Source: Eledone cirrhosa (lineage: Eukaryota). From it: a stretch of 64,000 bases of DNA. Location: positions 85,250,001 through 85,314,000 of the forward strand of contig OZ024741.1 in assembly GCA_964016885.1 (NCBI GenBank), in the 5' to 3' direction. Shown piece after piece: positions 1,212-2,451 of this stretch. Every line of letters begins with the position of its first letter. The stretch's first letter is position 1. The position numbers and the translations under genes are program-made. The notes beneath the pieces are model-generated. The model ran no database searches, was not told the DNA's origin, and saw only the letters and a program-made list of their open reading frames with translations.

Positions 1212-1395
1212 TAACGATGGAAGTGTGGTAAACAACCAGGTGGACCATAACGCACCAGAGTACTCAATAGTTAGAGTAGTACAGTGGGTAATAGGAAAAT
1301 GTTTAACCCCGACGGCAGAGCTCAAGCCGTTTCGACTCCAGAAATAGCCGTCAAAACGGCTTCAGCTCTGCCGTCGGGGTTAAACATATTCCTAT
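1212..1395 (-). mobile_element. Palindromic HHR-derived mini-element, family C copy 1
   Basis: Unique tail aacgatggaagtgtggt...gggta plus hairpin 1291-1395 containing GAAAC-GGC..GCC-GTC-GGGG; TA-flanked; homologous to 2021, 32785 and 50438. Confidence 0.85.
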
Positions 1396-1427
1396 ATATA
1401 TAGATATATATATAGAGAGAGAGAGAG

Positions 1428-1831
1428 AGAGATTGATTAACATATAAAAATACATGAATAATCACGGGAGATAATTTTTGCTTGCGGGTAACCGCGCATA
1501 GCTAGTTTAGGCAATATTTACCTTTAAGTGTGATTAACCTTCCTTGCATATATCCCATTAAAGAAATATATTTCATCAATTAATCAGATGGTAAGTCACG
1601 GAAAGTGGATATTATTGGATTGTCAACAAGGAAAGTGATAATTTCCAGCTATTGGTGCTTACAGAGCGAGATGAAATATATGGTGAAATATATTTCTTTA
1701 ATGGGATATATACAAGGAAGGTTAATCACACTTAAAGGTAAATATTGCCTAAACTAGCTATGCGCGGTTACACGCAAGCAAAAATTATCTCCTGTGATTA
1801 TTCATGTATTTTTATATGTTAATCAATCTCT
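1428..1831. repeat. Inverted repeat with ~150-bp arms and ~100-bp spacer
   Basis: 1428-1578 is the reverse complement of 1681-1831 with few mismatches. Confidence 0.9.
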
Positions 1832-2020
1832 AGTTATTATAATATGTTCAGATTTATTTATCTTTGAGCTTAAATTCTCAGCATATATGGCACATGCATT
1901 GTCATGACACCCATGATTTCGATTTAGATTAAATTCATTTAATTCATTTATCTTAATTTTGGACTTAGATATATATATATATATATATATATATATATAT
2001 ATATATATATATATATATAT

Positions 2021-2232
2021 AACGAAGGAAATGTGGTAAGGAACCAGGTGGACCATAACGCACCAAAGTACTCAATACTTAGGGTAGTAGAGTGGGTAAT
2101 AGGAACGAGTAAGACCCCGACGGCTGAGCTCAAGCCGTTTCGACGGCTAATTCTGGACTGAATCTCGGTATAGTCCAGAATTAGCCGTCGAAACGGCTTG
2201 AGCTCAGCCGTCGGGGTCTTACTCGTTCCTAT
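2021..2232 (-). mobile_element. Palindromic HHR-derived mini-element, family C copy 2
   Basis: Perfect 61-bp arms 2099-2159 / 2172-2232, 12-nt loop, (TA)n on both sides. Confidence 0.9.
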
Positions 2233-2282
2233 ATATATATATATATATATATATATATATATATATATTGATAGAGAGAGAT

Positions 2283-2451
2283 TGGGGATTACAAGTTTAG
2301 ACCAGTAAGACCATGTACTCGATACATGGGGAAGTAGAGTGTATGCCTAGTAATAAATTGGTGCCCGACGGCTGAGCTCACCCTCTTTCAATGGCGCGTG
2401 GATAACGTTGAAACAGCGTTAGCTCAGCCGTCGGGCACCAACTTTTCACTA
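2283..2451 (-). mobile_element. Divergent relative of family C palindromic element
   Basis: ttggtgcccgacggctgagct...gttGAAACagcgttagctcagccGTCgggcaccaa hairpin with related tail (gtactcgatac..gtagagtg). Confidence 0.7.

Follow-up and report, generated by a model that had tools for sequence, protein, structure and literature searches.

The small palindromes of family C in this window (the whole 64,000-nt stretch of DNA that was analysed) are genuine, abundant repeats. They are probably Penelope-like stubs, in each of which two separately primed cDNAs were likely joined head to head near the likely 5' end of the element's RNA, a point that falls in loop II of a predicted hammerhead ribozyme. 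The layout and the junctions are read in the sequence itself; we infer that a promoter and a cap are involved, which enzyme acts and in what order the steps take place. This reading is supported by the common start base of the tail-less arms, by joints that contain no palindrome, by the two haplotypes found in the third copy, and by an apical filler in the second copy that comes from another family.

Read in the sense of the ribozyme, a family C element has a tailed arm, which holds the 3' part of the hammerhead, the motif TTCCTAT and an 80-nt tail, and a tail-less arm, which ends at TTCCTAT; the two arms meet head to head. An inverted, 5'-truncated copy joined in this fashion is present in all four family C insertions (three palindromes and one long copy) and in a diverged relative, and the tail, 80 nt long, occurs at one end only in each of the four. 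By sequence comparison, the family has two fixed outer ends, 80 nt apart. TA runs lie on both flanks of the four insertions, whereas next to the tail of the relative there is (GA)n. The initial annotation of this DNA had every short arm stopping at TTCCTAT before (TA)n, which holds for all four family C insertions but fails for the relative, whose short arm ends in TTCACTA.

The three palindromes lie at 1212-1395, 2021-2232 and 50438-50631, and the relative at 2283-2451, as had been annotated. The tailed arm of copy 1 (1212-1336, minus strand) carries part of the hammerhead 3' half from GTCGAAAC and then the 80-nt tail; its tail-less arm (1335-1395, plus strand) starts at the position we call +1, has two nucleotides in common with the other arm, and reaches its TTCCTAT end before (TA)n. 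In copy 2, the tailed arm (2021-2164, minus strand) extends 4-5 nt upstream of +1 and displays the initiator-like TCAGTC. It is followed by a 12-nt filler at the apex (2163-2174, plus strand), whose last three nucleotides are common with the arm start, and by a tail-less arm (2172-2232, plus strand) that starts at +1 and matches the tailed arm at 60 of 60 aligned nucleotides. The tailed arm of copy 3 (50438-50569, minus strand) starts at +8 (AAATAGCC), and the tail-less arm (50570-50631, plus strand) has one extra G and then +1. The relative repeats the tail-plus-hairpin layout, with arms that are about 76% identical.

The hairpins are far beyond chance. Their DNA fold energies are -46.1, -83.2 and -65.1 kcal/mol for copies 1, 2 and 3, and -34.2 kcal/mol for the relative; the best fold among 100 mononucleotide shuffles of each is between -17.2 and -22.5 kcal/mol, so that the real hairpins are 15-61 kcal/mol lower. 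We ruled out an assembly artefact as the origin of the palindromes, given that the arms are imperfect in two of the three copies and that a palindromic apex appears in 22 Illumina reads.

The apical loops differ between copies, as previously noted, at 13, 12 and 8 nt. The two arms had also been said to share variants private to each copy. The sharing is borne out within copies 1 and 2, but the variants of copy 2 are not private: its end is the loose-end consensus of 1932 reads of public run X9 and 65 contigs of run X1. Concordance of the arms within each of these two copies fits one RNA or one source alike. Of 54 sites compared between the arms of copy 3, two differ, corresponding to 33413 and 33415, and public data show both to be polymorphic in the family; since the arms differ at family-variant sites, they likely derive from two templates. 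These arm-to-arm distances are taken from the four insertions in the window. As for the filler in copy 2, its 12-mer recurs in the window at 538-549 and 626-637, one site in each arm of family A, and nowhere else; it has no match in 100 shuffles and starts at the predicted ribozyme cut site of family A, which is likely its donor.

The fourth insertion, the long copy, is a 718-bp insertion at 32784-33501 with the family C tail. Its tailed arm (33395-33501, plus strand) consists of 28 nt of the ribozyme 3' end, the tail and then (TA)n, and its tail-less arm (32784-33394, minus strand) runs for 611 nt and contains an AT-rich non-coding upstream region, the whole predicted hammerhead and the TTCCTAT end. 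Earlier, 32800-32893 had been taken for a non-palindromic copy that reveals stem II. Stem II can indeed be read there, but the segment is one end of the larger insertion, complete with tail and 28-nt tailed arm.

The predicted type I hammerhead (32800-32893, minus strand) is a hand-built structure. In this model the core UUGACAA (32889-32883) is a U3-A8 variant, stem II has 9 bp (32879-32871 with 32837-32829) and a 33-nt loop II, a G10.1-C11.1 pair is present, GAAAC lies at 32826, stem III has 5 bp, and the predicted cut falls after GUC at 32804. Stem I forms four of its five pairs in the window's long copy. The change from A to G at 32893, which completes stem I, accounts for 42361 of 46765 in X1 depth (about 90%) and for 354 of 478 X9 reads. 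Position N7 (32885) is variable in public data, and a loose end from run X5 (two contigs) again has A at core position 8. The public data thus support the predicted hammerhead at the level of sequence. Because the long copy contains a complete predicted U3-A8 hammerhead, the earlier assignment of CGGCTATTT/AAATAGCCG to stem II holds for the hand-built structure, and as a predicted structure stem II is real. At the gathering threshold Rfam gave no hits, and a scan by E-value showed no hammerhead among the 150 of 285 matches listed, which are mostly microsatellite-driven miRNA models. The lowest-energy fold of the window's long copy is not the hammerhead.

The 5' half of the hammerhead is absent from three of the four family C copies. 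The initial annotation was correct about the hammerhead 3' half and about the absence of a CUGANGA-type box, which is missing from all arms of the three palindromes. We also observe that the 3' strand of stem II is complementary to the 5' strand of stem III at 32822-32835 (6 bp around CGAA); in an RNA starting at +1, the predicted hairpin would hide GAAA.

The annotation had equated the apex with stem II. Its position is non-random, but it is not stem II: all three tail-less arms start in one alignment column (window equivalent 32844, with copy 1 ambiguous by its 2 nt of microhomology), which lies within loop II at a distance of 7 nt, and all six palindrome arms stop short of the 5' strand of stem II. 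The tailed arms of the three palindromes and the long copy end at four places, about -5, +8, +16 and +34. The surplus of the tail-less arm over the tailed arm is 13 nt in copy 1, 8 nt in copy 3 and about 580 nt in the long copy. The spacer is part of the tail-less arm in the long copy and in two of the three palindromes (copies 1 and 3). Since the tail-less arm in these insertions has sequence that the tailed arm lacks, the tailed cDNA was not its template; and the tail-less strand cannot template the tail.

Public data locate the same end. From bins 32811-34 to bins 32859-82, just past the apex region, depth falls in all three contig sets, by 18.8-fold in X1, 18.1-fold in X4 and 32.4-fold in X5; for these runs we use contig depth, which is not equivalent to copy number. 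We left out of the analysis the raw-read depth of X9 and its read ends at 32846, 32849 and 33352, because they coincide with AATT sites: the depth drop in X9 is confounded by a library enzyme that, judging from the read ends, cuts at AATT. Among the 15 of 147 public joints listed, whose short sides are 22-36 nt, nine connect an arm end at 32835-32842 to the tail at 33428-33473 without a palindrome, and two of the palindrome-free arm-to-tail joints listed show 5-nt microhomology. We excluded six 'opposite strand' joints, which we attribute to cross-mapping from one arm to the other. Beyond 32842 the sequence is heterogeneous, with an agreement of 0.38 across 99 X1 contigs and 0.42 across 878 reads. 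Arm ends in public contigs spread over about 32843-32848, and +1 is therefore not exact. Some joints have an X1 depth of 90-436, compared with 2-17 for the eight long pieces listed. Thus identical junctions recur, which may reflect amplification as a unit, and part of family C may have been re-amplified in this way. Exact-pattern scans for family C in viral contigs and metagenome contigs gave no matches.

The sequence around the apex suggests that it is likely the 5' end of the element's RNA, and that a Pol II promoter likely lies within the family C stem-loop II. None of the public runs listed as containing the family is recorded as RNA, and the start site is read from DNA. The predicted RNA 5' end (+1 = 32844, within 32841-32848, minus strand) is inside loop II, where the family majority letter at 32843 gives AGTC. 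A TATA-like box at -31 (32869-32875, minus strand) overlaps the 5' strand of stem II; TATTTA starts at -31, and the probability of finding a motif of this kind by chance in the six positions from -33 to -28 is 0.02-0.035. Judged by the generally known TATA and initiator consensus motifs, the Pol II core promoter pattern (TATA-like near -30 and initiator at +1) is present at the level of motifs, and by eye we saw nothing resembling the general consensus of the downstream promoter element at +28 to +32. An extra G precedes +1 in copy 3; a G precedes +1 in copy 1 also, where it is common with the other arm. A copied cap would leave such a G, as in L1, and copy 3 provides one clear case in the window. 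We dropped a tally of extra Gs from the public joints after inspecting 10 of the 12 rows listed, in which the letters between the two sides were mostly tail variants or microhomology. CAGTC also occurs at or within about 12 nt of the apex in families A and B, at differing distances from the ribozyme motifs, against a background of 0.00064 per position in what is a post hoc comparison across families. In families E, F and G any match to the initiator motif is loose or absent, and the relative is without it.

The window derives from the microsatellite-rich genome of an animal, perhaps cephalopod-like to judge from a SINE. It contains L1/Tx1-type open reading frames (Pfam RVT_1 and Exo_endo_phos), and several other elements in it have inverted arms. 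Family A (446-660) has a tail of about 95 nt and a palindrome in (TA)n; its tailed arm contains a complete predicted hammerhead with a CUGAAGA core and a 5-bp stem I, and CAGTC marks its apex, about 8 nt upstream of that core. Family B (667-1067) combines a tail of about 150 nt with inverted arms and a minimal hammerhead 3' half. Its tail-less arm appears to start at CAGTCC (about 934-939), its tailed arm has 20 extra nucleotides, and its apex is about 70 nt upstream of its GAAAC. Family G (30415-30870 and 18236-18430) carries a second U3-A8 hammerhead-like motif, UUGAUAA, and has an inverted copy with the apex about 60 nt upstream of the core. The inverted element at 22815-23474 has arms of about 290 nt with a hammerhead-like motif in each, and its 70-nt spacer resembles the element's outer end, which suggests a template jump. 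At 15656-15765 there is a 96% palindrome in (TA)n with a 4-nt spacer, both arms of which start with AGTGG, and no clear hammerhead. Inverted-repeat elements with no evident hammerhead, possibly MITEs, occupy 1446-1813, adjoining the microsatellite flank of copy 1, and 3200-3687. A tandem L1/Tx1-type array spans 50969-63664, where a 3.35-kb segment occurs twice at 99.85% identity (54319-57668 and 60203-63551), and copies of a SINE-like repeat are found at 12466-12783, 15822-15953, 43449-43559 and 44091-44281.

The mechanism that we propose for family C is as follows. A Pol II promoter in stem-loop II, with its TATA-like box at -31 and initiator-like sequence at +1, would produce transcripts from +1 that hold the ribozyme 3' half only and would not be expected to self-cleave, while read-through copies would hold the whole hammerhead motif. 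The element's protein would nick both strands of a (TA)n target, as PMC11167929 shows in vitro for an anole element, and reverse transcription would be primed internally at two sites that bound the tail. When priming takes place at the 5' repeat, the cDNAs would run off the end of the RNA after about 60 and at most about 140 nt: the 60-nt product would come from priming at TTCCTAT, and the product of up to 140 nt from priming at the end of the tail. The two cDNA ends would then be joined via microhomology or filler. Depending upon how far the tailed cDNA had been extended, the product would be either a palindrome or a plain inversion, possibly with filler at the junction. The long copy would have arisen likewise, except that the RNA on which its tail-less cDNA was primed extended further upstream. 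Among the points that we count against this account, besides the recurrent junctions and the spread of arm ends given above, are that the tail is 80 nt long, compared with a published 30-40, and that the Drosophila Penelope promoter is TATA-less, with a start upstream of the ribozyme. A more extended proposal, to which we give somewhat less than even chances, is that family C keeps its Pol II core promoter in the hammerhead stem-loop II, so that the transcript begins within the ribozyme, with a 5' copy unable to cleave and a 3' copy able to do so, that the palindromes are genome-wide fossils of two-primer run-off, and that the process now and then switches to other Penelope RNAs at 5' ends cut by their ribozymes.

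Other processes could in principle generate similar structures. The initial annotation had the tailed cDNA fold on the complement of ribozyme stem II, prime its own second strand and stop at TTCCTAT, a proposal that is now largely refuted and very improbable. Stem II is present in the long copy, the apices cluster near it, both arms have variants in common in copies 1 and 2, and copy 3, considered by itself, resembles stem II closed by an 8-nt loop. However, the product of such a fold would retain all 33 nt of the native loop in antisense, flanked by identical arms, and this is found in none of the three palindromes; a 16-nt probe from the native loop II occurs, within the window, only in the long copy. 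In addition, the spacers of copies 1 and 3 are oriented as the tail-less arm, the arms of copy 3 are two haplotypes, and the palindrome-free joints, among the 15 of 147 listed, use the same arm end. Hammerhead-bearing inverted elements elsewhere in the window have apices unrelated to stem II, about 8 nt (family A), 130 nt (family F) and 60 nt (family G) upstream of their cores. Self-priming as the source of Penelope junction palindromes is in print, although not via a ribozyme stem in the available part of that source (PMC3846280), where it is proposed for rotifer Penelopes. In such a scheme a cDNA or antisense RNA would fold on 2-3 nt of terminal microhomology and copy itself, and trimming or template jumps would give the spacers. 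The apex of copy 1 can be drawn as a 3-bp GAC/GTC closure, and the identity of the copy 2 arms at all 60 sites is what self-copying predicts. We nevertheless regard this as unlikely for family C, where fold-back would leave the tail without a template if it began from the tail-less strand, and the spacer without one if it began from the tailed strand. Copy 3 offers no microhomology to close the fold and combines two haplotypes, and joints without a palindrome exist.

A different possibility is unit amplification, in the manner of MITEs or inside other repeats, starting from a small number of ancestral palindromes or from long inverted insertions reduced by deletion. Long inverted repeats tend to lose their centres, single junctions reach the X1 depths of 90-436 given above, far over those of the listed long pieces, and subfamily variants occur in both arms of copies 1 and 2. 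Yet the junctions differ in all four window insertions, the sequence past the arm end is heterogeneous in the 99 contigs as well as in the 878 reads, the repeat forms only one end of the element, and the deepest microhomology joints could arise repeatedly and independently. Deletion, moreover, gives no reason for a stop at a TATA-spaced, initiator-like site, and we consider unit amplification an improbable general explanation. Nor do we classify family C as a MITE, since one end is a unique tail, the four junctions all differ and the loose ends are heterogeneous, even though some junctions recur at high depth. Finally, the joining of two primed cDNAs may be right and the fixed end may instead be a processing or stall site in loop II, such as a nuclease cut, a splice-related end or a pause of the reverse transcriptase. 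This fits the junction data equally well and could draw on the CAG that follows pyrimidines at the end of the loop. It leaves unaccounted for both the TATA-like box at -31 and the extra G, a reverse transcriptase would already have unwound stem II before the apex, and the arms continue 7 nt beyond the candidate acceptor, which rules out a splice-acceptor origin of the apex; we judge an end of this kind decidedly unlikely.

A Penelope-like origin of the family C stubs, which the initial annotation had advanced, is supported by these results and very likely, and family C elements would then be ordinary Penelope by-products. When we compared 120 Penelope-type proteins with the window, they matched at 19289-21415 only, which is a different element, and none was linked to the family C end. 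The interior of the long copy gave a weak best match to these proteins (E=0.001, 24% identity, 505-nt target). The matched element is a decayed Penelope-type open reading frame at 18891-21559 on the minus strand, with two direct repeats downstream (18891-18959 and 19186-19250) and a 3' end unlike that of family C; Pfam named no family in its pieces, and its identity comes from the 120-protein comparison. A minus-strand frame at 24884-25492 looks by eye like the end of a GIY-YIG endonuclease, and has no match in Pfam or to the 120 proteins.

L1 twin priming offers a partial analogy, in which primers on opposite strands lead to a 5' inversion and to a microhomology junction with deletion or duplication. 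The two opposite-strand primers and the microhomology junction resemble what we propose for family C, but in family C the priming sites would be fixed by the element, and the inverted piece would run to a fixed RNA end. The closest parallels are Penelope elements themselves. The available text of PMC8557442 describes Penelope units in which a 5'-truncated copy is inverted, a tail of 30-40 bp stands on one side and (TA)n is the target, and states that the formation of such inverted, tailed insertions is unresolved; that of PMC3846280 reports, besides junction palindromes and self-priming on an antisense template, a TATA and initiator-like pair in the pLTR of rotifer Penelopes. Family C has in common with these endonuclease-bearing units the inverted copy, the one-sided tail, the junction palindrome and the (TA)n bias. 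It differs from them, as far as those texts describe, in comprising only about 60 + 140 nt with no open reading frame, in its 80-nt tail, and in a junction at one site in a ribozyme loop.

The predicted ribozyme is likewise of a familiar kind. For Penelope hammerheads, the accessible portion of PMC4209133 reports U3-A8 cores, bases left unpaired ahead of stem II, and ribozymes paired on opposite strands at distances of 100-700 bp. Family C agrees with these metazoan hammerheads, including the U3-A8 variant of Schistosoma Cercyon: it has the type I fold, the U3-A8 core and the G10.1-C11.1 pair, its stem II is long and its stem I short, bases at the 5' side of stem II are unpaired, the stem III region is palindromic, and the ribozyme pairs lie on opposite strands. 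Compared with the motifs described there, it is not minimal: stem III has 5 bp, the loop II of 33 nt likely covers the interval from TATA to initiator, and most of its copies retain the 3' half only. Non-LTR retrozymes, as far as the accessible text goes (PMC7229834; bioRxiv 10.64898/2026.07.22.740005), are like family C non-coding, Penelope-related and equipped with a type I hammerhead, but they are head-to-tail tandems with whole ribozymes, whereas family C consists of head-to-head stubs with half ribozymes. We accordingly do not assign family C to the retrozymes, its copies in the window all being single head-to-head units and three of the four lacking the 5' half.

In vitro, the protein of the anole Poseidon element PAc cuts and extends both target strands from two internal starts that bound the tail, at an AT-rich target and with no need for ribozyme cleavage (PMC11167929). 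The two tail-bounding starts, the use of both strands and the AT-rich target match our model for family C. PAc differs in that its open reading frame starts at stem II, where family C likely has a transcription start in loop II, and the origin of the inverted junction is not addressed in that study. Drosophila Penelope has a TATA-less internal promoter, an intron 46 bp downstream of the start and a ribozyme at the intron end, according to the parts available of PMC2377424 and PMC4209133. In the limited literature covered, we found neither a start site nor a TATA box reported inside a Penelope hammerhead, and no account that attributes the junction to twin priming. Penelope elements are already known for inverted arms, tails on one side, palindromes at the junction, TA targeting and U3-A8 hammerheads; what is new here is a promoter that, from its sequence motifs, likely lies inside the ribozyme.

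With a high-copy family such as this one, in which the inverted arm ends at a single site, the formation of the Penelope junction becomes testable from an assembly alone: identical arms point to self-copying, and mixed haplotypes to two templates. If a start inside the ribozyme is true, it would let the element keep its self-cleaving motif in both repeats while leaving its own 5' end uncut. The same promoter-in-ribozyme reading, if true, would explain the inverted junctions of Penelope elements, and would hint at cleavage in living cells.
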